64,000 nucleotides of DNA from an uncultured Bacteroides sp. GTDB lineage: Bacteria > Bacteroidota > Bacteroidia > Bacteroidales > Bacteroidaceae. The translations under genes and the position numbers were made by a program. This document shows, one piece after another, positions 10,307-61,154 of this stretch (its first letter is position 1; each line of letters starts with the position of its first letter). The notes below the pieces were generated by a model that was given only the letters and a program-made list of their open reading frames with translations, had not been told where the DNA came from and made no database searches. The DNA is taken from NCBI RefSeq assembly GCF_905207245.1, contig NZ_CAJLKP010000027.1:171-64170 (forward strand). The letters are read 5' to 3'.

Positions 10307-11053
10307 ATGGGATTATTAGATGGAAAAACTGTCATTGTGACTGGTGCTGCACGCGGCATCGGTAAGGCGATCGCTTTAAAGTTCGCTTCTGAAGGAGCAA
10401 ATATTGCATTCACTGACCTGGTGATTGATGAAAATGCAGAGAATACAACCAAAGAACTGGAAGCAATGGGCGTGAAAGCTAAAGGTTATGCTTCAAACGC
10501 TGCCAGCTTTGAAGATACTGCCAAGGTAGTAGAAGCCATTCATGCAGATTTTGGTCGCATTGATATTCTGGTAAACAATGCAGGTATCACTCGTGATGGT
10601 CTGATGATGCGTATGAGCGAGCAACAATGGGATATGGTTATTAACGTTAACCTGAAGTCTGCTTTCAACTTTATTCATGCTTGTACTCCGATCATGATGC
10701 GTCAGAAAGCAGGTAGCATTATCAATATGGCTTCTGTAGTAGGTGTTCACGGTAATGCCGGACAAGCCAACTATGCAGCTTCCAAGGCTGGTATGATTGC
10801 TTTGGCTAAGTCTATTGCCCAGGAACTCGGTTCTCGCGGCATCCGTGCCAACGCTATTGCTCCGGGCTTTATCCTGACCGATATGACTGCTGCATTGTCT
10901 GACGAGGTAAGAGCCGAATGGGCAAAGAAGATTCCTTTGCGTCGCGGCGGTACTCCCGAAGACGTGGCAAACATTGCTACCTTCCTCGCTTCTGATATGT
11001 CTTCTTATGTATCAGGACAGGTGATCCAGGTAGATGGTGGTATGAATATGTAG
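10307..11053 (+). CDS. fabG: 3-oxoacyl-ACP reductase (SDR family)
   Basis: TGAARGIGKAIA cofactor motif, NNAGIT, catalytic YAASKAG. 248 aa. Confidence 0.9.
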   Translation: MGLLDGKTVIVTGAARGIGKAIALKFASEGANIAFTDLVIDENAENTTKELEAMGVKAKGYASNAASFEDTAKVVEAIHADFGRIDILVNNAGITRDGLMMRMSEQQWDMVINVNLKSAFNFIHACTPIMMRQKAGSIINMASVVGVHGNAGQANYAASKAGMIALAKSIAQELGSRGIRANAIAPGFILTDMTAALSDEVRAEWAKKIPLRRGGTPEDVANIATFLASDMSSYVSGQVIQVDGGMNM

Positions 11054-11061
11054 TTTAAATT

Positions 11062-11151
11062 AAGAATGAAGAATGATGAATGAAGAATTTTGCTACGCTA
11101 TGCAAGTATGCCGCAAAGTAATTCATCATTCTTCATTCATCATTCTTCATT
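11062..11151 (+). repeat. palindromic element A (heptad-word arms plus GC-rich core)
   Basis: Perfect 24-bp stem: 11065-11088 (AATGAAGAATGATGAATGAAGAAT) pairs with 11128-11151. The arms are 7-nt tandem words (AAGAATG AAGAATG ATGAATG AAGAATT). The 39-nt core is TTTGCTACGCTATGCAAGTATGCCGCAAAG. An A9 run follows and abuts the rluA-family ATG. Confidence 0.85.
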
Positions 11152-11159
11152 AAAAAAAA

Positions 11160-11912: not shown

Positions 11913-12944
11913 TCAAAAACGTGGCTTCACATATTTATCCTGAGAGGAAGTAAAACGTAATCCCGGTATGCTGTTACTCTTTCTTGGGAAGCTGATGGAC
12001 TTGATAAGCGAATAATCATCCGCATCCAGTGCATAATATTCGTCCGCGTCGGCTGTTTTCACACAAACCGTCCAGTCGAACATATTTCCGAAGATGGACA
12101 GGGCATCCTCTTCAGGATTGAAGGAAGGAACTCCGGTCTTGATCACATCATAAGTCTTATTGTTCAGCACATAGAAGTTGTTATCCACATCCGTCAGGAA
12201 CCCCAGTGTCTTGCGGTCCTTGAACTCCGTGATGAAAAGATACTTCGCATTTAAGCCTTCCGGCAGGGAAATGGCACGTACATACGGGCGCCCTTTTGTC
12301 TGTTTCAGATGGAAAAGTTTTCCCTCATTATCCAGAACCAGATAACCTTCATCGTACTCCTTGCGAGTGGTGGGATTACCGGCCAATCGGCGGGCAGGGA
12401 ATTTAAACCCTTTCTTCACCATAGCCTCTGTGAACAGTTGGCTTTTGTCTGTATCTACCGTATTGGTTTTCATACCGATAAATTCAAGATTTTTCGAGGT
12501 GACGCGGAATACATCATCGGGCATACTCAGGTCCACACGTCCCGACATACTTTCCAGCAAAGGATAAAGCTCTATCTTGGAGGCATTGATATCCGAAGCT
12601 GCCGAGCGGAAGCTGAAATTCGTAAGCTGCACCTCGCGCGGAGTGACGGCAACGCCATTGATGCTGTCCGGGAACCGCTCATCCGCCATAAGCTGGCGCA
12701 TGTAGAAGAACGGGAGAATACTGTCCGTCTGCTCCTGTGTATATACATTGCCGGACTGGTCGCGTCGTACCACGCCTTTACCATCTTCATTGCCCATGGA
12801 GAGGAAGTCGCCGAGGACACAACTGTACATGGAAAAAGGAACCTTCGATGGCTTTGCCGCAAAGAAAGAATAACACCAAGGCAACTGCCAGATAATGAGC
12901 AATGCAATAGTGATGTATAAGAATATTTGACTAAAACGTTTCAT
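11913..12944 (-). CDS. N-terminally anchored protein of unknown function (resembles the Bacteroides DUF4857 family, from memory)
   Basis: 343 aa with one N-terminal TM (IFLYITIALLIIWQLPWCY). The remainder looks soluble and beta-rich. Last gene of the ABC sub-operon. Confidence 0.55.
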   Translation of the reverse strand: MKRFSQIFLYITIALLIIWQLPWCYSFFAAKPSKVPFSMYSCVLGDFLSMGNEDGKGVVRRDQSGNVYTQEQTDSILPFFYMRQLMADERFPDSINGVAVTPREVQLTNFSFRSAASDINASKIELYPLLESMSGRVDLSMPDDVFRVTSKNLEFIGMKTNTVDTDKSQLFTEAMVKKGFKFPARRLAGNPTTRKEYDEGYLVLDNEGKLFHLKQTKGRPYVRAISLPEGLNAKYLFITEFKDRKTLGFLTDVDNNFYVLNNKTYDVIKTGVPSFNPEEDALSIFGNMFDWTVCVKTADADEYYALDADDYSLIKSISFPRKSNSIPGLRFTSSQDKYVKPRF

Positions 12945-12980: not shown

Positions 12981-13649
12981 TTAATCTTGTTCGCCTGCCT
13001 TGAACCGTGCGATGGAGAGCCATGAGAGACTTGCCGTGAGCAGGGTGTAGATTGCCAGCCAGGGCAGGAAAGCGTTGTAAGCTTCCGGTGCCGGAGCCAG
13101 GAAGAAGATGCGCAACAGCAATACAGAGATTACCAGATTGAGGACGCGGCGTTTCCAGGTCGGTTCCAGGCATATCCATGAAATCAGAAGATAAGCGGCA
13201 ATACCTGCCAGATACCAGGGAAGAGCTGTCAGCAGAATCCGCGAATAAAGTTCCGGAGCCAGGACGCCTTGCATGTAAACCGTCATCAGCAGGTAGTTGG
13301 CGGCAAAGCAGATAAGTAACACTACCAGTCCGTAGAGCAGCATCAGGTTAATCATCCGCAGTTGCGGGTAGGGCAGATGCAATGTCAGTTTCAGGCATTT
13401 ATGGTGCATTTCGGGTACGAATTGTACCAGTGCAAGCAGTATCCCGACCAATAGTGGAATAAATTCCAGTAAATCCACGAATACGGTATCCCGTGCCAGC
13501 ATAACTTCCCAAACGTGTTCCACGCCTTTCATGCTGGCAACACGGTTGATGCGCAACATCGAGTATCCGGCAAAACCGAGCGTTACAAGCAGTGCAAGCA
13601 ACAGATACCAGCGGGTTTTAATCCATTCTTTATAAAATATAGCGTTCAT
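12981..13649 (-). CDS. ABC-2-type permease-like membrane protein
   Basis: 222 aa with about 6 TM segments. N-terminus IFYKEWIKTRWYLL is typical of ABC-2 permeases. Lies downstream of an ABC ATPase. Confidence 0.6.
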   Translation of the reverse strand: MNAIFYKEWIKTRWYLLLALLVTLGFAGYSMLRINRVASMKGVEHVWEVMLARDTVFVDLLEFIPLLVGILLALVQFVPEMHHKCLKLTLHLPYPQLRMINLMLLYGLVVLLICFAANYLLMTVYMQGVLAPELYSRILLTALPWYLAGIAAYLLISWICLEPTWKRRVLNLVISVLLLRIFFLAPAPEAYNAFLPWLAIYTLLTASLSWLSIARFKAGEQD

Positions 13650-13650
13650 G

Positions 13651-13780
13651 GTGAATTAAAAATTAAAAATTGAAAATTAAAAAATGATACTGAGATATTG
13701 AAAATTGAGAATTGAGAGGTGATACAACAGCTACACTGCGCAGCTGTTTTTTAATTTTTAATTCTCAATTTTTAATTTAA
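13651..13780 (-). repeat. palindromic element B (AATTnAA heptad words, GC hairpin, conserved 33-nt arm)
   Basis: Fills the 131-bp gap between the ABC ATPase stop and the permease start. Contains heptad runs at 13654-13685 and 13697-13719, the hairpin AACAGCT-acactgcgc-AGCTGTT (13726-13748), and a 33-nt arm at 13747-13779 that is identical to 47869-47901. Confidence 0.8.
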
Positions 13781-14763: not shown

Positions 14764-14896
14764 AATGGTAACTCCATTTACACGCCGTGGTAAAGACCGT
14801 TACATGCCGAGGTAAAGAGCGTTACAATACGTGGTAAAGGTCGTTACATCCTGCGGTAAATGCTTTTACCTCTTGTGGTAAATGCTTGGTAAATGC
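14764..14896. repeat. tandem array of about six 22-bp units (GnGGTAAAGnnCGTTACAnnnn)
   Basis: Units start at 14787, 14809, 14831, 14853 and 14875, with a degenerate unit at 14764. Each has GGTAAA...TTAC(C) dyad symmetry. Unit 14853 carries the perfect arms GGTAAA/TTTACC. Confidence 0.8.
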
Positions 14897-21826: not shown

Positions 21827-21923
21827 TGTAGAATGGGAAACGTGGGAAATCGCTATATATAGGTAAATTGTGGGTAGAGTTGTGGATTTTGCTACTTATA
21901 AATAGGTATTGGTCAGAAACAAC

Positions 21924-21964
21924 AAAAGCCGTTCCCCAGAATAGACAAGTAGGGAGCGGCTTTT
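21924..21964 (-). terminator. intrinsic terminator/attenuator after the small ORF
   Basis: On the minus strand, AAAAGCCGCTCCC-loop-GGGAACGGCTTTT is followed by GTTGTTT. Confidence 0.55.
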
Positions 21965-21984
21965 GTATGTTAGCGTGCTTACTA

Positions 21985-24791: not shown

Positions 24792-24834
24792 ACTGTTGGT
24801 GGAATTAATTCAAGCCGGTACAGAAGAGAAGGAA

Positions 24835-24924
24835 ACAAGGGGACGAGTTGACAAGGGGACAAGGGGCTGCGCAATGCTTCTATACCGCATGGAACCTTGT
24901 TCCCTTGTCAACTCTTCCCCTTGT
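24835..24924 (+). repeat. palindromic element E (octamer-word arms plus GC-rich core)
   Basis: 30-bp stem between 24835-24864 and 24895-24924 (28 Watson-Crick pairs, 1 G:U, 1 mismatch). Arms are built from the words CAAGGGGA and CGAGTTGA. Core is GGCTGCGCAATGCTTCTATACCGCATGG. Confidence 0.85.
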
Positions 24925-24986
24925 CAACTGATTCAAATCCGCTCCGAAAAGTGTTAATTCCGCTAACAAGTAACAATCGCTATTTT

Positions 24987-27577: not shown

Positions 27578-29929
27578 ATGAACAATGTCTCCAAGAAGAA
27601 AATAGCTGCCGGTTATGCTGTCCTGCTGGCAGTTTTGCTTTACTCCCTGTTCTTTGTGCACAGGGAGATGGAGAACCTTATGAGTTCCGACACTAGCGAC
27701 ATCCTGCGTACCGACAGCTTGATAGGTCTTTTGCGGGAGAAAGATGCCAATACCGTCCGCCTACTGCGCACGCTGAGCGAAGCAAACGACAGCATGATTT
27801 CCGCCCGTGAGGTGGAGCAGATAATTGCCGAACAGGATACCATCATTACTCAACAACGTGTGCAGCGTCGTGTTACTGCCCGTCGTGATACAGTTGTGAC
27901 GCAACCCAAGAAGAAGGGCTTCTTCCGCCGTCTGGGCGAAGTCTTCGTGCCACCCAAGAAGGATACTGCCGTGCAGGTACAGACTACCCTTGAAGTGGCC
28001 ACCGATACCATTCTCGATGCCTACAACCCCGTCGATTCCCTGCATGCAAAACTGCGTACTGTTGCCCAACAGAAGAAGGCGACTAATAGCGTGGTGCAAC
28101 GTCGCAAGCGAACCCTGCAACGCCTAGACCATGCACTGACCGCCCGCATCGACAGCCTCTTGAAAGGATATGAACAGGAAACCCTGCTCCGCGCCCGCGA
28201 AGAAGCCGAGTATCAGAAGGCGGTGCGCCATCGTTCAGCAACCATCATTTCGGGTATTGCGGCGGGAGCCGTAGTGTTGTCCGTCATCTTCCTTGTCATG
28301 ATTTGGCGCGACATTACCCGTAGCAACCGCTACCGCCGCCAATTGGAAGAGGCCAACCGCTTCGCCGAGGAACTGCTCGCCTCCCGCGAAAAACTGATGC
28401 TTGCCATCACCCACGACTTCAAAGCCCCTTTAGGCTCCATCATGGGCTATGCCGACCTGCTTTCACGTCTCACTGTAGATGAGCGGCAACGCTTCTACCT
28501 CGATAATATGAAAACCTCCTCGGAACACCTTCTGAAACTGGTTACCGATCTGCTCGACTTCCATCGCCTCGACCTGAAAAAAGCTGAGATTAATCGTGTC
28601 ACTTTCCACCCTTCACGCTTGCTGGAAGAAATCTATGTCAGCTTCGAACCACTGACTTCCGCCAAGGGACTGTCTCTGAAATGCGATATAGCCCCTGAAC
28701 TGAAAGGAACCTTCATCAGTGACCCACTGCGCTTGCGCCAGATTGTCAACAATCTGCTTTCCAATGCTGTGAAGTTCACTTCGGAGGGCAGCATTACACT
28801 GACAGCCTGTTTTGTACCGAAGGATGACCCTGCTTTCTCCGGTAATCACCTGAAGCTCTCTGTCATCGATACAGGCAAGGGTATGGAGGCGGGCGACCGT
28901 GAACGTATCTTTCAGGAATTTACCCGCCTGCCGGGAGCACAGGGCGAAGAAGGGTTCGGACTGGGACTGTCCATCGTCCGCATGTTGGTGCAGTTACTCG
29001 AAGGGCGTATAGATGTGGACAGTGTGCCCGGAAAGGGGAGCACATTTACACTTCGCGTTCCGCTTTATCCGGTGAAGAGGGAGGGGAATGAAGAATTGGG
29101 AATGAAGAATGAAGAATTGGGCTGCGCACCCACGCCGTCAGGTAATTCTTCATTCTTCATTTCTAATTCTTCATCTTTCCATATCCTCATGATTGATGAC
29201 GACCGTATCCAACTCACCCTCACCTCCGCCATGTTGTCGCAAAGCGGCATAACCTCCGTCACTTGCCTGCAATTGGATGAATTGTTGGATGCCTTGCGTA
29301 CCGACACTTTCGATGTGCTGCTTACTGACGTGCAGATGCCTGCAATGAACGGTTTCGACCTGCTGAATCTGTTGCGTGCTTCGAATATTCCGCAGGCAAA
29401 GACCATACCTGTAATTGCCGTCACTGCACGCAGCGACATGCAACGGGATGAATTTCTAAAACACGGCTTCACCGGCTGCCTGCACAAACCGTTCATGGTG
29501 AATGAGTTGCTTGCCGAATTGAAACAGGAAGCCGGGGAACTGAAAGCAACACCTCCAGAAACTGAGTCAATCGCCGATACACCGACACCGGCCGGCACTT
29601 CGACTTTGAATTTTTCCGCCCTCACCGCCTTCTCCGGTGATGATGCCGACGCGGCAAAATCCATTCTGGAAAGTTTCGTCACCGAGACGCGCCTTAACAC
29701 TGACCACCTGCGGCATTCCCTTGAGGCGGAAGACACAGATGGCATCGCAGCTATGGGCCACAAGATGCTCCCCCTCTTTACGCTGTTGGGTGCTGATGAA
29801 CTCGTAATTCTGCTGAAAGCGCTCGAAGCATCGCACGGCGTGCCTTTTAACGAAGAGATAAAAGAAAAGTCACTTTTGGCACTGAGCATTATAGAAGAAG
29901 TGCTGACACAAGCTGTGAAACTCTATTAG
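27578..29929 (+). CDS. hybrid sensor histidine kinase/response regulator with C-terminal HPt domain
   Basis: Two TM segments and coiled-coil regions. HisKA H-box ITHDFKAPL, HATPase (NAVKFT...DTGKGM...GFGLGLSIV), REC (ILMIDDD...LLTDVQMP...HKP), HPt-like (AAMGHKMLPLFTLLGA). Confidence 0.9.
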   Translation: MNNVSKKKIAAGYAVLLAVLLYSLFFVHREMENLMSSDTSDILRTDSLIGLLREKDANTVRLLRTLSEANDSMISAREVEQIIAEQDTIITQQRVQRRVTARRDTVVTQPKKKGFFRRLGEVFVPPKKDTAVQVQTTLEVATDTILDAYNPVDSLHAKLRTVAQQKKATNSVVQRRKRTLQRLDHALTARIDSLLKGYEQETLLRAREEAEYQKAVRHRSATIISGIAAGAVVLSVIFLVMIWRDITRSNRYRRQLEEANRFAEELLASREKLMLAITHDFKAPLGSIMGYADLLSRLTVDERQRFYLDNMKTSSEHLLKLVTDLLDFHRLDLKKAEINRVTFHPSRLLEEIYVSFEPLTSAKGLSLKCDIAPELKGTFISDPLRLRQIVNNLLSNAVKFTSEGSITLTACFVPKDDPAFSGNHLKLSVIDTGKGMEAGDRERIFQEFTRLPGAQGEEGFGLGLSIVRMLVQLLEGRIDVDSVPGKGSTFTLRVPLYPVKREGNEELGMKNEELGCAPTPSGNSSFFISNSSSFHILMIDDDRIQLTLTSAMLSQSGITSVTCLQLDELLDALRTDTFDVLLTDVQMPAMNGFDLLNLLRASNIPQAKTIPVIAVTARSDMQRDEFLKHGFTGCLHKPFMVNELLAELKQEAGELKATPPETESIADTPTPAGTSTLNFSALTAFSGDDADAAKSILESFVTETRLNTDHLRHSLEAEDTDGIAAMGHKMLPLFTLLGADELVILLKALEASHGVPFNEEIKEKSLLALSIIEEVLTQAVKLY
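29085..29177 (+). repeat. palindromic element inside the hybrid kinase ORF
   Basis: 31-bp stem between 29088-29118 and 29144-29174 (29 Watson-Crick pairs plus 2 G:U). Heptad words GAATGAA/GAATTGG. 25-nt core GGGCTGCGCACCCACGCCGTCAGGT. The reading frame stays open across it. Confidence 0.85.
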
Positions 29930-38256: not shown

Positions 38257-39939
38257 TTAGAGGCGTATGCTGGCTTCGCAGGATTCTGCTACGGCGGGGT
38301 GGTGGGTGATGAAGATAAAAGTCTTTCCTGTGCAGTCTCTGCGCAGGTTCTTTATTAATTGCCGTTCGGTTTCGGGGTCGAGGGCGGAAGTGGCTTCATC
38401 TAATAATAAGATGTGTCCCGGGCGGAGGAGTGCACGGGCGATGGCGATGCGTTGGGCTTGTCCTTCGCTGAGGCCGCCACCTTGTTCGTTGAGACTGGTG
38501 TCGATGCTTTGCGGAAGAGAAAAGACAAAGTCGGCACAAGCGGTGCGGAGGGATTGGAGCATCTGGGTTTCCGTGGCATGAGGATTACCCATGAGGAGAT
38601 TGTCACGGATAGTACCACTGAAAAGGGTATTTCCCTGGGGAACGTAGACGAAGTTGGCACGTGTTTGTGGAGAAACCTTGAGAGTTGAGAGTTGAGGCAA
38701 TGCTGCGTTGACAGATGAAGAATTGTGGTTACTTGCAGGGCCTAAAAATCTTTTGCCTATAAGAGTGATGTCTCCTTCTTGAGGGGTAGTGAGAGCGAGT
38801 AACAGACGGATAAGAGTGGTCTTACCGGCACCCGTCTCACCTAAAACAGCAGTACAACTTCCGGCGGGGAAGTTGCAGGAGAAATGATTCAGTATAGGGC
38901 GGTCGCCTGGCGAATAACTGAAGGTAATATCCTTTAGTTGCAAATCCGGCGTTGTTTCAAAGAATTCCGATTCTCCGGTCGTTTCAGCAGGCAGTTCTTC
39001 CAGTTCCATTAATCGCTCCACGGCGGTGAGGGCGTTGATAAACGAAGGCAGCAGGCGCGAAAGGTCGAGTGCAGGGCGTTGCACTTTGCCTACTAATTGT
39101 AGGAAAGCAGTCATCGTTCCGAAGGTTATGCTGCCTGTGCTGAGGCGGACGGCTCCCCAAAGAAAAGCAGTGAGATAACCGCCGGAGAATGCGAAGGCTA
39201 CCAGTGTGCGTGCCGATAATGAAAAGCGGGTGCGTCCGAATATCTGGCTACGGAGAGCATCTTGCAAGTCATCCAATTTATTGATATGCCGTTCGCCCTG
39301 TTCCAGTGTTTTGATAACAGTGCGGTGTTGCAGGCTCTCCTGGATGACGGATTGAATACGGCTATCACTTTGCCGGATTTCCCGGGTATAGCGGCGCATC
39401 CGTTTCATGTAGAAGCGGCTGCCGAGAAGAAAAATAGGTAGGATTCCTACAACTACCCATGGCAGGGACGGGTCGAGTAGACAGAAGAAAATGAATGCAG
39501 CCAGTAACTGGACAATGGTGACAATAAAAGCGGGGATTGTACTGGTCAGTAGTCCTACGATGGCGGCAGTGTCCTGCTCCACCCGGTTTACGATGTCTCC
39601 GGTGTGGAAACGTTCCAGTTCGTTCCAACGGCTTTGCAGTAGTCGGGAGAAGAGACGGTGGCGCAAGGCATTTCCGGCTTCTACCTGCATACGGGCACTG
39701 AGCCAAGTGTCGGCGGCACTGCAAAGAAGCTGTGCTATCAGTAGGGCGATGGTGAGGAGGGCGGCATGAGTCAGGCGTCCGGTTGCGGCACCTGTGGCGA
39801 TGTCTATGACGACTTTAGAGGCGTAGATAAATGCAAGAGAGACGCCTACACCGATAATTCCGGTGAAGCAGGAGAGAAGGATGCGTCCTCGTTGTCCGTG
39901 GGAGACTTCCCGGACGTATTTTAGCTGCGCTGTCTTCAT
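38257..39939 (-). CDS. ABC exporter (fused TMD-NBD), no C39 peptidase domain
   Basis: 560 aa. Six TM segments in the N-terminal half. Walker A GETGAGKTT, signature LSEGQAQR, Walker B LLLDEATSALD. About 20 extra residues lie between Walker A and the Q-loop. Confidence 0.88.
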   Translation of the reverse strand: MKTAQLKYVREVSHGQRGRILLSCFTGIIGVGVSLAFIYASKVVIDIATGAATGRLTHAALLTIALLIAQLLCSAADTWLSARMQVEAGNALRHRLFSRLLQSRWNELERFHTGDIVNRVEQDTAAIVGLLTSTIPAFIVTIVQLLAAFIFFCLLDPSLPWVVVGILPIFLLGSRFYMKRMRRYTREIRQSDSRIQSVIQESLQHRTVIKTLEQGERHINKLDDLQDALRSQIFGRTRFSLSARTLVAFAFSGGYLTAFLWGAVRLSTGSITFGTMTAFLQLVGKVQRPALDLSRLLPSFINALTAVERLMELEELPAETTGESEFFETTPDLQLKDITFSYSPGDRPILNHFSCNFPAGSCTAVLGETGAGKTTLIRLLLALTTPQEGDITLIGKRFLGPASNHNSSSVNAALPQLSTLKVSPQTRANFVYVPQGNTLFSGTIRDNLLMGNPHATETQMLQSLRTACADFVFSLPQSIDTSLNEQGGGLSEGQAQRIAIARALLRPGHILLLDEATSALDPETERQLIKNLRRDCTGKTFIFITHHPAVAESCEASIRL

Positions 39940-45951: not shown

Positions 45952-45964
45952 TTACTGCCACCAC

Positions 45965-46096
45965 GTTGGCAAGACTTTGCCACCGTGATGGCAAAACTTT
46001 GCCACCGTGATGGCAAAACTTTGCCACTATGATGGCAAGACTTTGCCAATGCGATGGCAAAACTTTGCCACTACGATGGCAAAAATGCTCTGATAA
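45965..46096. repeat. tandem array of 22-bp units with dyad TGGCAAA-AC-TTTGCCA
   Basis: Five full units start at 45965, 45987, 46009, 46031 and 46053. A degenerate sixth starts at 46075. Variation is confined to an A/G position and the 4-5 nt linker. Confidence 0.9.
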
Positions 46097-47787: not shown

Positions 47788-47789
47788 TT

Positions 47790-47901
47790 AAATTGAGAAT
47801 TGAGAATTGAAAATTGAGAAATAATATCTTCTCTCACTTTTAATTCTCAGTTCCTAATATGAGTGATATTTTTTAATTTTTAATTCTCAATTTTTAATTT
47901 A
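47790..47901 (+). repeat. palindromic element C (AATTGAG heptad arm / U-rich arm)
   Basis: 32-bp helix between 47790-47821 and 47869-47900 (27 Watson-Crick pairs plus 5 G:U, no other mismatch). The 3' arm ends 2 nt before the mreB ATG. Confidence 0.85.
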
Positions 47902-48934: not shown

Positions 48935-49777
48935 ATGCGAAATTTACTGAACTTTCTTGTTAAATACAACTACTGGTTCCTCTTTCTATTGTTAGAGGCA
49001 GCCAGTTTTGTTTTATTATTCCGCTTCAATTACTATCAGCAGAGCGTGTTTTTTACTTCTGCCAATAGCGTGGCGGGGAAAGTTTATGATATTTCGGGAG
49101 CTATCACTTCTTATTTCCACCTGAAAACAACCAATGAAGACCTGCTGGACCGCAACATGTGGCTGGAACAACGGGTGGCATTCCTTGAAAAGACACTGAA
49201 AAACAACGGAATGGACTCTGTCAGGCTGTATAGCCTGGAACGGCTCGAACCGGAAGAATATCAGATATTCAAGGCGAATGTGATTAAGAATAGCTTGAAC
49301 CGGCTGGATAACTATATCACTCTTGACGAGGGAACCAGTGCAGGTATCCGTCCGGAAATGGGTGTGGTAGATGCCAATGGAGTGGTAGGTATTGTTTATA
49401 AGACTTCTCAGCATTATTCTACCGTCATTCCGTTGCTGAACAGTAAATCGAGTATTAGTTGTAAGATTGTGGGCAGTGACTATTTCGGCTATTTGAAGTG
49501 GGAATATGGAGATTCCCGTTTCGCTTATTTGAAGGATTTGCCCCGTCATGCCGAGTTCAACCTGGGCGATACGGTTGTGACAAGCGGTTACTCTACGGTA
49601 TTTCCCGCAGGAGTCTTAGTGGGCACGGTGGATGATATGTCCGACTCGCACGACGGCCTTTCTTATCTATTAAAGATAAAACTGGCTACGGATTTCGGAA
49701 AAGTGAGCAATGTGCGTGTAATTGCCCGTACAGGACAGGAAGAGCAGAAAGCGTTGGAGAAGGAAGAGGAAAAGTGA
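48935..49777 (+). CDS. mreC: rod-shape-determining protein MreC
   Basis: 280 aa with an N-terminal TM, a coiled coil and C-terminal beta domains (GDTVVTSGYSTVFPAGVLVG). Follows mreB. Confidence 0.88.
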   Translation: MRNLLNFLVKYNYWFLFLLLEAASFVLLFRFNYYQQSVFFTSANSVAGKVYDISGAITSYFHLKTTNEDLLDRNMWLEQRVAFLEKTLKNNGMDSVRLYSLERLEPEEYQIFKANVIKNSLNRLDNYITLDEGTSAGIRPEMGVVDANGVVGIVYKTSQHYSTVIPLLNSKSSISCKIVGSDYFGYLKWEYGDSRFAYLKDLPRHAEFNLGDTVVTSGYSTVFPAGVLVGTVDDMSDSHDGLSYLLKIKLATDFGKVSNVRVIARTGQEEQKALEKEEEK

Positions 49778-49890
49778 TAGAGTGATGAGATGATAAAGTG
49801 ATAGGGCGAAAAGTGATAGAATGAAAAATGATAAGAGAATAAACTCCCCTTCATTTTTTAATTTTTAATTTTCAATTTTTAATTTAATAA
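49778..49890 (+). repeat. element D: GTGATAG-word run plus an unpaired copy of the conserved U-rich arm
   Basis: GTGATAG/GTGATGA/ATGATAA words span 49773-49835. The arm at 49854-49886 is 32/33 identical to 47869-47901. No complementary partner arm was found. Confidence 0.7.
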
Positions 49891-49892
49891 GT

Positions 49893-50393
49893 GTGGTCAT
49901 CAATTATCTGCATAAATTAGGTTGGTTTATTGGTTTGGTGCTATTGCAGGTGCTGATACTGAACAATGTGCATATTGCCGGATATGCCACTCCTTTTCTA
50001 TATATCTATCTCATACTGAAGTTCGAGTCGGAAACGCCGAGAAATGCCTTAATGCTATGGGCGTTCTTCCTGGGACTGACAGTGGACATTTTCTCGGATA
50101 CGCCGGGCATGAATGCGGCGGCTACGGTAGCGCTGGCATTCTTGCGGCCTACTTTCCTGCGATTGTTTGTGCCGCGAGATACATTAGAGAACATCGTTCC
50201 TTCGATAAAGTCGATGGGAATTGCTCCCTTTCTGAAATATTTGGTTGTCAGTGTTTTTGTTCATCATGCAATATTACTTACCATAGAATTCTTTTCGTTC
50301 GCCCACATCGGAACGTTGCTACTGAGAATTGTGGCAAGTGCGTTGCTGACTATAACCTGCATAATGGCTATAGAAGGAGTGAGGAAAAAGTAA
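49893..50393 (+). CDS. mreD: rod-shape-determining protein MreD (GTG start as given by the ORF track)
   Basis: 166 aa with 5 hydrophobic segments. Lies between mreC and the PBP2 gene. Confidence 0.72.
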   Translation: MVINYLHKLGWFIGLVLLQVLILNNVHIAGYATPFLYIYLILKFESETPRNALMLWAFFLGLTVDIFSDTPGMNAAATVALAFLRPTFLRLFVPRDTLENIVPSIKSMGIAPFLKYLVVSVFVHHAILLTIEFFSFAHIGTLLLRIVASALLTITCIMAIEGVRKK

Positions 50394-60149: not shown

Positions 60150-61067
60150 ATGCCATTAAATTTACCTGATAAGCTGCCGGCGATAGAGTTGCTGAAAGAA
60201 GAGAATATATTTGTCATTGACAACTCGCGCGCCACGCAACAGGACATCCGTCCGTTGCGCATCGTTATCCTGAACTTGATGCCTTTGAAGATTACCACGG
60301 AGACAGACCTTGTGCGTTTGCTCTCCAATACACCGCTTCAGGTGGAAATCTCGTTCATGAAAATCAAGAGTCATACATCGAAGAATACGCCTGTTGAACA
60401 TATGCAGACGTTCTATACTGACTTTGAGAAGATGCGTGGCGAGAAGTACGACGGTATGATTATCACCGGTGCCCCGGTAGAGCAACTGGATTTTGAAGAA
60501 GTGACTTACTGGGATGAGATTATGGAAATCTTTGATTGGGCGCGTACGCACGTCACATCTACCCTTTATATATGCTGGGCGGCACAGGCCGGACTCTATC
60601 ATCATTATGGAGTGCCTAAGTATGCCTTGGATAAGAAGATGTTCGGCATTTTCGAACATCGTCCGTTGCAGCCGCTGCATGCCATTTTCCGCGGCTTCGA
60701 TGATGTGTTCTATGTTCCACATAGCCGCCATACGGAAGTGCGGAAAGAAGATATCCTGAAAGTGCCGGAACTAACTTTGCTCTCTGAATCGGAAGAGGCA
60801 GGCGTGCATCTTGTTGTGGCACGTGGTGGGCGTGAGTTCTTTGTGACCGGGCATTCGGAGTACTCTCCGTTGACACTGGATACAGAATACCGCAGAGATT
60901 TAGGCAAAGGACTGCCTATTGAAGTGCCTCGTAATTATTATGTGGATAATGATTTGGACAAAGGTGTGATGGTACGTTGGCGTGCCCATGCCAATTTACT
61001 GTTTTCCAATTGGCTGAACTACTTCGTATATCAGGAAACTCCGTATAATATCAACGATATAAAGTAG
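60150..61067 (+). CDS. metA: homoserine O-acyltransferase (MetA family)
   Basis: [23 protein letters not shown]-terminus, [14 protein letters not shown] (active-site Cys region). Confidence 0.9.
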
Positions 61068-61147
61068 TTACAAGCTACGAGCTACGAGTGACAAGACTTT
61101 GCGGTCATAGCATAGCACTCGTAGCTCGTAGCCTGTAACTTGTAACT
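61067..61147 (+). repeat. palindromic element F (GCTACGA heptad arms)
   Basis: 24-bp stem between 61067-61090 and 61116-61139 (1 A:C mismatch). Words are GTTACAA GCTACGA GCTACGA GTGACAA, with an extra TTGTAAC word at the 3' end. The 25-nt core resembles the reverse complement of the element A core (ACTTTGCGG...CATAGC). Confidence 0.85.
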
Positions 61148-61154
61148 AAAAAAT

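Follow-up and report, generated by a model that had tools for sequence, protein, structure and literature searches.

The DNA considered here is a stretch of 64,000 nucleotides (nt) from an uncultured Bacteroides sp. (contig NZ_CAJLKP010000027.1, positions 171 to 64,170), referred to below as the window, and our subject is a palindromic repeat element at 29086-29174 that lies within the coding sequence of a hybrid sensor histidine kinase and is translated with it. The host open reading frame (ORF; 27578..29929, + strand) encodes 783 amino acids (aa) in which Pfam recognizes HisKA (residues 270-332), HATPase_c (382-497) and Response_reg (536-648), followed by a C-terminal HPt-like region. Its closest proteins are hybrid kinases of the Bacteroides intestinalis group (86-93% identity), and the orthologues of B. 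intestinalis are annotated as hybrid sensor histidine kinase/response regulator. Because HATPase_c ends at residue 497 and Response_reg starts at residue 536, the element, which corresponds to residues ~503-533, is placed exactly in the linker between the ATPase and receiver (REC) domains. An initial annotation of the locus, made from the letters of the sequence, had given it this very position within an ORF that stays open; the domain limits and the ORF list agree with it on both counts. The reading frame is uninterrupted across the element, whose translation adds ~30 residues to the protein.

The palindrome consists of two inverted arms of 31 nt each, 29088-29118 and 29144-29174, which a repeat finder scores as 94% complementary and 25 nt apart. 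The two non-complementary positions are a G opposite a T on the + strand, so that the helix counts 29 Watson-Crick and 2 G:U pairs around a 25-nt core, as first described and as both the sequence of 29080-29180 and the repeat finder bear out. The purine-rich left arm (29086..29118, + strand) is built of GAATGAA heptads and one variant unit, AATTGGG, that removes an in-frame TGA, and is translated as NEELGMKNEEL. The core or loop (29119..29143, + strand), GGGCTGCGCACCCACGCCGTCAGGT, carries the motif GCTGCGC with 0 mismatches, encodes GCAPTPSG and is inverted in the closest relative. The pyrimidine-rich right arm (29144..29174, + strand; peptide NSSFFISNSS) is made of ATTCTTC heptads and the mirrored variant unit TCTAATT. 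Tandem Repeats Finder detects a period of 7 in both arms (GAATGAA x4.6 at 29086-29117; ATTCTTC x4.3 at 29145-29174), and the arm periodicity score is 0.71 at this period. Folded as + strand RNA, 29080-29182 reaches -56.1 kcal/mol against -24.0 +/- 3.4 for shuffled sequences (n=200; z = -9.6, 0 shuffles as good), and the - strand reaches -40.6 kcal/mol (z = -6.5). With at most one mismatch, GAATGAAGAAT occurs 15 times in the window against 2.05 expected, a number reached by 0/100 shuffles; 12 of the 15 matches fall in two elements, 11064-11152 and 29086-29162, in line with the heptad words that the initial annotation had seen in both the kinase element and the intergenic one at 11062..11151. 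The kinase element is not an assembly artefact, since it is found in independent assemblies of relatives (L001, L002, L009, L006 and L010). A reading of the hairpin as an intrinsic terminator was dropped, as no U tract lies downstream of the stem: the right arm is followed by CATCTTTCC, and no + strand terminator-like site was detected in 28800-29500.

A pure GAATGAA run carries a TGA every 7 nt, and therefore all three frames are blocked within 21 nt. In the kinase copies, the unit that would otherwise give an in-frame TGA is swapped for AATTGGG, AATTAGG, AATTAAG or AACGAAG, and the left arm stops ahead of the next TGA-giving unit. In the window and in B. oleiciplenus the variant unit is mirrored in the opposite arm (TCTAATT, CCTAATT), though there is no stop to avoid there; in L009, L019 and L072 it is unmirrored and arm mismatches remain.

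The kinase element is one of a dispersed family. Six palindromes of one build are present in the window, with 24-35-bp arms of tandem 7- or 8-nt units around a 22-62-nt core, at 11058-11151, 13648-13778, 24835-24924, 29086-29174, 47789-47901 and 61065-61148. Their arm words differ (GAATGAA; AATTGAG/AATTAAA; ACAAGGGG; AGCTACG), and GCTGCGC or its complement is present with at most one mismatch in four of the six cores, the 61065 core having two mismatches and the 47789 core none of the motif. The five copies outside the kinase are intergenic and fill gaps between co-directional housekeeping genes. The copy at 11058..11151 (GAATGAA arms, core TTTGCTACGCTATGCAAGTATGCCGCAAAGT) takes up the space from an SDR/FabG-like gene to a pseudouridine synthase gene; its core resembles, in reverse orientation, that of the copy at 61065..61148 (AGCTACG heptad arms), which lies between the genes for a homoserine O-succinyltransferase (metA-like) and a peptidase U32. 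The copy at 13648..13778 (AATTAAA/AATTGAG arms, core with GCGCAGC) fills the gap between two - strand genes, one for an ABC ATPase and one unknown, and that at 24835..24924 (8-mer arms of ACAAGGGG, core GGCTGCGCAATGCTTCTATACCGCATGGAA) stands between the PPIase and peptidase M16 genes. The palindrome at 47789..47901, with AATTGAG heptad arms and no GCTGCGC in its core, fills the purH-mreB gap and represents a related subfamily.

An inverted-repeat scan of 1.59 Mb, comprising the window and loci from ~70 Bacteroides genomes, returned 40 long inverted repeats with periodic arms. GCTGCGC (at most one mismatch) is found in the core of 21 of these 40, against 4 of 56 non-periodic palindromes and an estimated chance expectation of ~4/40. 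The arm words form recurring subfamilies that include 9- and 10-mers (CGCGGATTA, CACAAATTR, GGAGTTAGAG). When metagenomes were scanned for GCTGCGC after a GAATGAA arm, at least ~40 further true copies were obtained, nearly all intergenic and mostly from human gut assemblies; among the matches listed, the commonest core is GGCTGCGCTATCAYGCTGCAAAGT. A member of the family is thus a palindrome of 75-125 bp with two 24-35-bp inverted arms of tandem 7-10-nt units and a 22-45-nt core usually containing GGCTGCGC...CCGCA/CTGCA; its usual place is a short spacer separating adjacent genes. For assignment we required inverted arms of at least ~24 bp, a 20-60-nt core, tandem 7-10-nt units, GCTGCGC beside an arm and several dispersed copies; the kinase copy has all of these, with 31-bp arms, a 25-nt core, period 7, an exact GCTGCGC and six copies in 64 kb. 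In Rfam, only a tRNA passes the gathering thresholds over the whole window, and at E <=10 the two GAATGAA elements recover only generic miRNA-precursor-like hairpins, all far below gathering scores. No description of the family was found in the searchable literature, which is full-text and excludes most subscription journals; the UG27 hairpin arrays and the census of MITEs (miniature inverted-repeat transposable elements) encountered there had no detailed relevance to it. A query with the 40-aa element peptide returned only 8 candidates and 3 small spurious ORFs, which is no gauge of how frequent coding copies are, and only 2 viral contigs showed the arm-plus-arm pattern.

To follow the insertion site, relatives of the kinase were sampled as the DNA of eight close alleles and 77 genome loci, and the linker was taken from every orthologue. 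A GAATGAA-arm element stands at the same place in the window, in uncultured Bacteroides (L001, L002 and L009; 93%), in B. oleiciplenus (L006 and L010; 88%) and in L019, L062, L072 (B. rodentium) and L076 (70-77%), that is, in at least seven Bacteroides lineages and down to 70% protein identity. The same linker is occupied by an AGTTGAG-arm element in L003, L008, L020 and L029, and by a recognisable decayed remnant in L018, L038, L067, L075 and L016. Typical B. intestinalis, B. cellulosilyticus and B. timonensis have a short linker, ..NEQ.(N/S)E-(N/D)S.., which may be read as a collapsed remnant without core, and B. clarus/stercoris-type and more distant orthologues have an unrelated acidic or proline-rich linker with no element. 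The ORF is open in every extracted linker, and the 66 relatives with an extractable linker, to ~48% identity, all possess a single kinase-receiver ORF, most of them without the element. The fusion of kinase and receiver therefore predates the element.

Two explanations had been offered initially, a repeat element inserted, as Rickettsia palindromic elements are, in a linker that tolerates it, or two genes fused across an intergenic element. Since element, remnant and ordinary linkers all occur in fused proteins, the first is supported and the second is not. An alignment of orthologues had been expected to expose either an indel or a split gene: the linker segment is indeed variable, being an element, a remnant or an unrelated linker, and no split gene was seen. 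Nor do all orthologues share a homologous linker free of any palindrome, as the element occupies this site in many lineages. When the protein minus its linker was placed in a neighbour-joining tree, element-bearing and element-free genes were interspersed, a pattern that would fit one old insertion followed by many decays; the insertion at the kinase linker is accordingly old in our reading, probably preceding the split of several Bacteroides species. The second linker of the kinase, from REC to HPt, can be occupied as well: L014 carries a full family element there (11050-11129) whose core is close to the first-linker core of L003 and L008, and decayed remnants are present in L010 (~11960-12040) and L020 (~11920-12010).

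The core is found in both orientations. Between the window and L009 the cores match at 23 of 27 positions as reverse complements and at 6 of 27 directly, for an identical total linker length. Relative to the window, the core is reversed in L072, L076 and L062 and direct in L010 and L019, and the flip recodes LGCAPTPSG to SSGGVDAQP.

In-frame translated insertion, the trait known from Rickettsia palindromic elements, was found in a second gene. One metagenome copy (L135, 4817-4913) is read in frame as part of a 452-aa SpoIID/LytB protein, within the Pfam SpoIID match. Of 120 near homologues with 82-99% identity, from B. acidifaciens and others, 119 have the site occupied, and the remaining one, P0183, has lost the element by deletion. 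The elements at this site have GAATGAA-type, AGTTGAG-type or other arms and display partial deletions, duplications and expansions, making the region hypervariable. Three SpoIID alleles carry an inverted core, ..LRVGCAVRLQSN.. in place of ..LRVTLQPDSAAH.., and because each of them is closest to a forward allele, recurrent flips are suggested. Between alleles with 97-99% identity over the gene, the core can be exactly inverted. L208 and L209 differ by an exact 26-nt core reverse complement between identical, perfectly paired ~33-bp arms, with 46 other differences in 1350 nt; L210 and L211 differ by an exact 26-nt core inversion with 12 point differences in the 1350-nt gene and ~170 across the 5350-nt locus.

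How the arms remain complementary can be approached from their substitutions. In an alignment of nine kinase copies 93% of the cells are paired, and of the 30 arm pairs 15 are invariant and only 3 are changed on both sides; the hairpin is therefore carried by sequence conservation rather than by covariation. As the arms are mostly invariant, the covariation signal is weak and no covariation-supported structure is claimed. The arms are identical to those of the window at 48-57 of 60 nt, for 70-89% identity over the rest of the gene. Selection acting on an RNA hairpin would favour G.U, yet the sense-strand arm mismatches of 30 family members with co-directional flanks comprise 22 G.T and 21 A.C, and those of copies scored as coding 5 G.T and 12 A.C. 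The absence of a G:U excess lends no support to selection at the RNA level and suggests that pairing is kept at the DNA level.

Taken together, we assign a probability of a little over 0.7 to the reading that 29086-29174 is a translated copy of a Bacteroides-wide palindromic family, tolerated in a permissive linker as selfish or neutral DNA and maintained at the DNA level. The designation as selfish or neutral follows from its being tolerated in a permissive position. Near-perfect complementarity would be preserved by the copying of one arm through template switching in the quasi-palindrome, together with slippage among the tandem units, and the same kind of event would occasionally invert the loop, recoding ~9 residues. 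For the protein, the net effect would be a linker variable in length and sequence. The sequence comparisons give no sign of separate kinase and receiver expression.

Several points weigh against this reading. The conservation of the arms, well above that of the gene, could reflect some unseen function. Template switching is inferred from symmetry and not observed. The patchy distribution on the tree would also fit repeated insertion or allele exchange by recombination, and L003 and L008, whose genes are of two different backgrounds, share nearly one element. Neither a transposase nor a target-site duplication nor a clean empty site was found, and mobility is for this reason inferred from the dispersed copies alone. 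None of 11 same-locus pairs of intergenic copies from different samples is flipped, so inversion appears occasional rather than rapid; a single sample supplied two of the three inverted SpoIID alleles, and in short-read assemblies, the source of our orientation calls, the direction of a loop between perfect inverted repeats can in principle be mistaken.

The closest functional parallel lies in the Rickettsia palindromic elements, which, as Ogata et al. are said to have described in 2000, are dispersed repeats of ~100 bp that also occur in frame inside protein genes, where they are translated and tolerated. The Bacteroides elements resemble them as dispersed palindromes of ~100 bp with both intergenic copies and in-frame translated copies in permissive parts of proteins, and in an insertion site common to related species. 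They differ in their host, which belongs to another phylum, and in arms made of copy-variable tandem 7-10-nt units around a short shared core motif; the likeness is functional only, and no sequence relation is expected. We know of no description, for the Rickettsia elements, of an inverting core or of arm turnover at a fixed site. A MITE would have terminal inverted repeats that match the ends of an autonomous insertion sequence, and a target-site duplication; the inverted arms of the Bacteroides elements have words that differ among copies, and we know of no parent insertion sequence for them. Quasi-palindrome template switching, from the work of Ripley and of Lovett, reportedly copies one arm from the other, perfects the palindrome and can rearrange the spacer. 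It would explain the strand-symmetric upkeep of the arms and the mirrored variant units; as a mutational mechanism, it leaves the shared core motif and the dispersal of copies unexplained. Hairpin generation by template switching is treated in 10.1101/2023.04.19.537475, and Rickettsia palindromic elements are mentioned in PMC1779305 and PMC10969869. The ERIC/RU repeats of enterobacteria (PMC2759123) are small, have inverted ends and are mostly intergenic, at times lying within ORFs to which they add peptide segments; unlike the Bacteroides elements, they have a fixed consensus, no tandem-unit arms and no loop inversion on report, and they belong to a different phylum.

An unlikely alternative is that these elements form a hitherto undescribed class of self-maintaining palindromic cassettes and that a dedicated enzyme, for example a RAYT of subclass 2.6 or an invertase acting on the core, spreads them, keeps their arms complementary and flips their loop. 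The comparison with repetitive extragenic palindromic (REP) sequences and REPINs is pertinent since these too are abundant extragenic palindromes of short intergenic spacers. In-frame REP copies are reported inside the tnpA-REP of subclass 2.4, and RAYTs of the Bacteroidetes subclass 2.6, including a B. xylanisolvens gene, are bordered by secondary structures, termed atypical, without GTAG (PMC6006769). Unlike REPs, which measure 20-40 nt and have a GT[AG]G foot, the Bacteroides element spans 87 nt with 31-bp arms and a 25-nt loop, and its conserved part is the top of the hairpin, not the foot. No GT[AG]G was found in 29080-29180, and such a motif lies within 8 nt of the foot in 9 of 40 family copies, an estimated chance level. 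No RAYT-like ORF (HUH/Y1 motif) was present in the 2.4 Mb of scanned DNA. If such an enzyme were at work, cassettes lying in frame would provide a built-in diversification of protein linkers and loops, of the kind met in the kinase linkers and at the SpoIID site, in effect miniature recoding invertons spread as a repeat family.

A programmed intragenic inverton, in which the core would be turned around between the 31-bp arms by a recombinase, within one population, so that the kinase and the SpoIID protein switch linker sequences, appears quite improbable to us. It would account for inverted repeats inside one gene, for both core orientations existing in frame in kinase and SpoIID, for an exact SpoIID inversion between alleles 99% identical across the gene and for the three inverted SpoIID alleles each lying nearest a forward one. 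In Bacteroides thetaiotaomicron, intragenic invertons have been documented, one of them in a hybrid two-component gene (Chanin et al., PMC10028968); they share with the present elements inverted repeats and a segment wholly within one gene, both orientations, a frame that either orientation can keep, and a recoded protein. By definition, however, both of their orientations coexist in one population, and site-specific recombinases are held responsible, whereas the orientations of the Bacteroides element are seen only between strains or species, and in the kinase between species rather than strains. The flipped segment is moreover only 25-27 bp long, the repeats that flank it are arms of a dispersed family, the recoded linker residues show no obvious functional difference and same-locus intergenic pairs show no flips (0/11).

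The hairpin might instead act in the mRNA, as a site of processing by RNase III or another activity or as a translational pause site tuning or uncoupling the kinase and receiver halves, which we consider very doubtful. The + strand hairpin is certainly stable (-56 kcal/mol, z = -9.6), its arms are more conserved than the gene across species, and the window copy has two sense-strand G:U pairs. An ATG (Met538, 29189-29191) also follows the right arm by 15 nt in the window, whose receiver begins ILMIDDD. Against such a function stand the lack of an excess of G.U-compatible mismatches (22 vs 21 overall, 5 vs 12 in coding copies), the loss of the hairpin in many orthologues whose gene is intact, the occurrence of the same elements in non-coding spacers, where the core may point either way with respect to the neighbouring genes, and the absence of a terminator-like U tract after the hairpin. 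The position of Met538 is Leu in every other listed orthologue. Intergenic family copies lie 2-9 nt upstream of the ATG of the next gene; the ATG beyond the kinase element is probably a coincidence, though it bears on the question of separate receiver expression.

The birth of the kinase by fusion of separate kinase and receiver genes across a read-through intergenic element is extremely improbable. It is true that a family element typically takes up the entire spacer of two co-directional genes, that this one fills nearly the whole kinase linker and that CATTAAAAA follows the right arm in L072 and L019 as it does at the intergenic copy ending at 11151. Yet all 66 linker-yielding orthologues (to ~48% identity) are single kinase-receiver ORFs, many of them with an ordinary linker, acidic or proline-rich, that lacks the element, and among the extracted relatives no orthologue was split.

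Other features of the window and of the related loci touch on the same family. At the spacer between the PPIase and M16 genes (window 24792-24986; syntenic in L003-L076), the flanks and a similar core (GGCTGCGC[A/T]ATG..) are retained in close relatives, whose arm words are entirely different, and more distant species have spacers of 3-50 nt with no element; no clean empty allele was found among close relatives, so no target-site duplication can be read at this site. Non-periodic hairpins of other repeat families occupy this spacer in L020 (7249), L026, L013 (7180) and L076 (21077). In L033 (643-1090), a B. intestinalis-like metagenome-assembled genome, the spacer measures 448 nt and has GATGGTAAGAT-type tandem-unit arms around a long AT-rich insert, an arrangement resembling a palindrome of the family type whose core is much larger. 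The spacer at 49773-49885, between ORFs 48935..49777 and 49893..50393, has AGTGATAG 8-mers on its left and TTTTTAA 7-mers on its right, the two sides not being complementary, and may be a broken or composite family member. Within an ABC exporter (ORF 38257..39939, - strand), 38660-38735 encodes a 19-residue insert, RFLGPASNHNSSSVNAALP, in the nucleotide-binding domain when compared with solved ABCB structures; at the DNA level, AATTCTTCAT is followed by a GCTGCG-like stretch and next by CTCAACTCTCAACTCTCAAG, and the insert may represent a decayed in-frame family element inside the window.

Repeats of other kinds were also noted. A hairpin at 21918-21965 has a conserved loop, GAATAGACAAG, stems that vary between species yet stay paired, and T-rich sequence after the stem. 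It recurs near the kinase, at varying distances upstream, in L024 (4545), L049 (3006), L056 (4527), L059 (3856), L060 (3458), L063 (85), L066 (4613) and L073 (4193), and could be a conserved terminator or a small structured RNA. Upstream of purH, a 22-nt tandem repeat, TGCCACCACGATGGCAAAACTT, is present in 5.9 copies (45956-46084) with a TGCCA..TGGCA inverted repeat in each unit, and this array could consist of putative protein-binding sites. Intergenic 22-nt tandem repeats, TTACAAGCCGTGGTAAAGACCG and variants, are found in ~5 copies at 14778-14896.

In-frame palindromic repeats are best known from Rickettsia. The same behaviour is now encountered in abundant gut Bacteroides, where it is displayed by a family of unusual build, in which a common core is combined with tandem-unit arms that vary. 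Such DNA can reside for long periods in the interdomain linkers of signalling proteins and at a site in a SpoIID domain. The resident segments evolve through new arm words, deletions and expansions, at a pace much above that of the remaining gene. By inversion of the loop, near-identical alleles come to encode different peptides, which ties the biology of these repeats to that of the recently described intragenic invertons and makes these loci suited to asking whether short palindromes flip by template switching during replication or through an enzyme. For the annotation of Bacteroides genomes, the consequences include spurious small ORFs, apparent hypervariable regions and possible assembly ambiguities.

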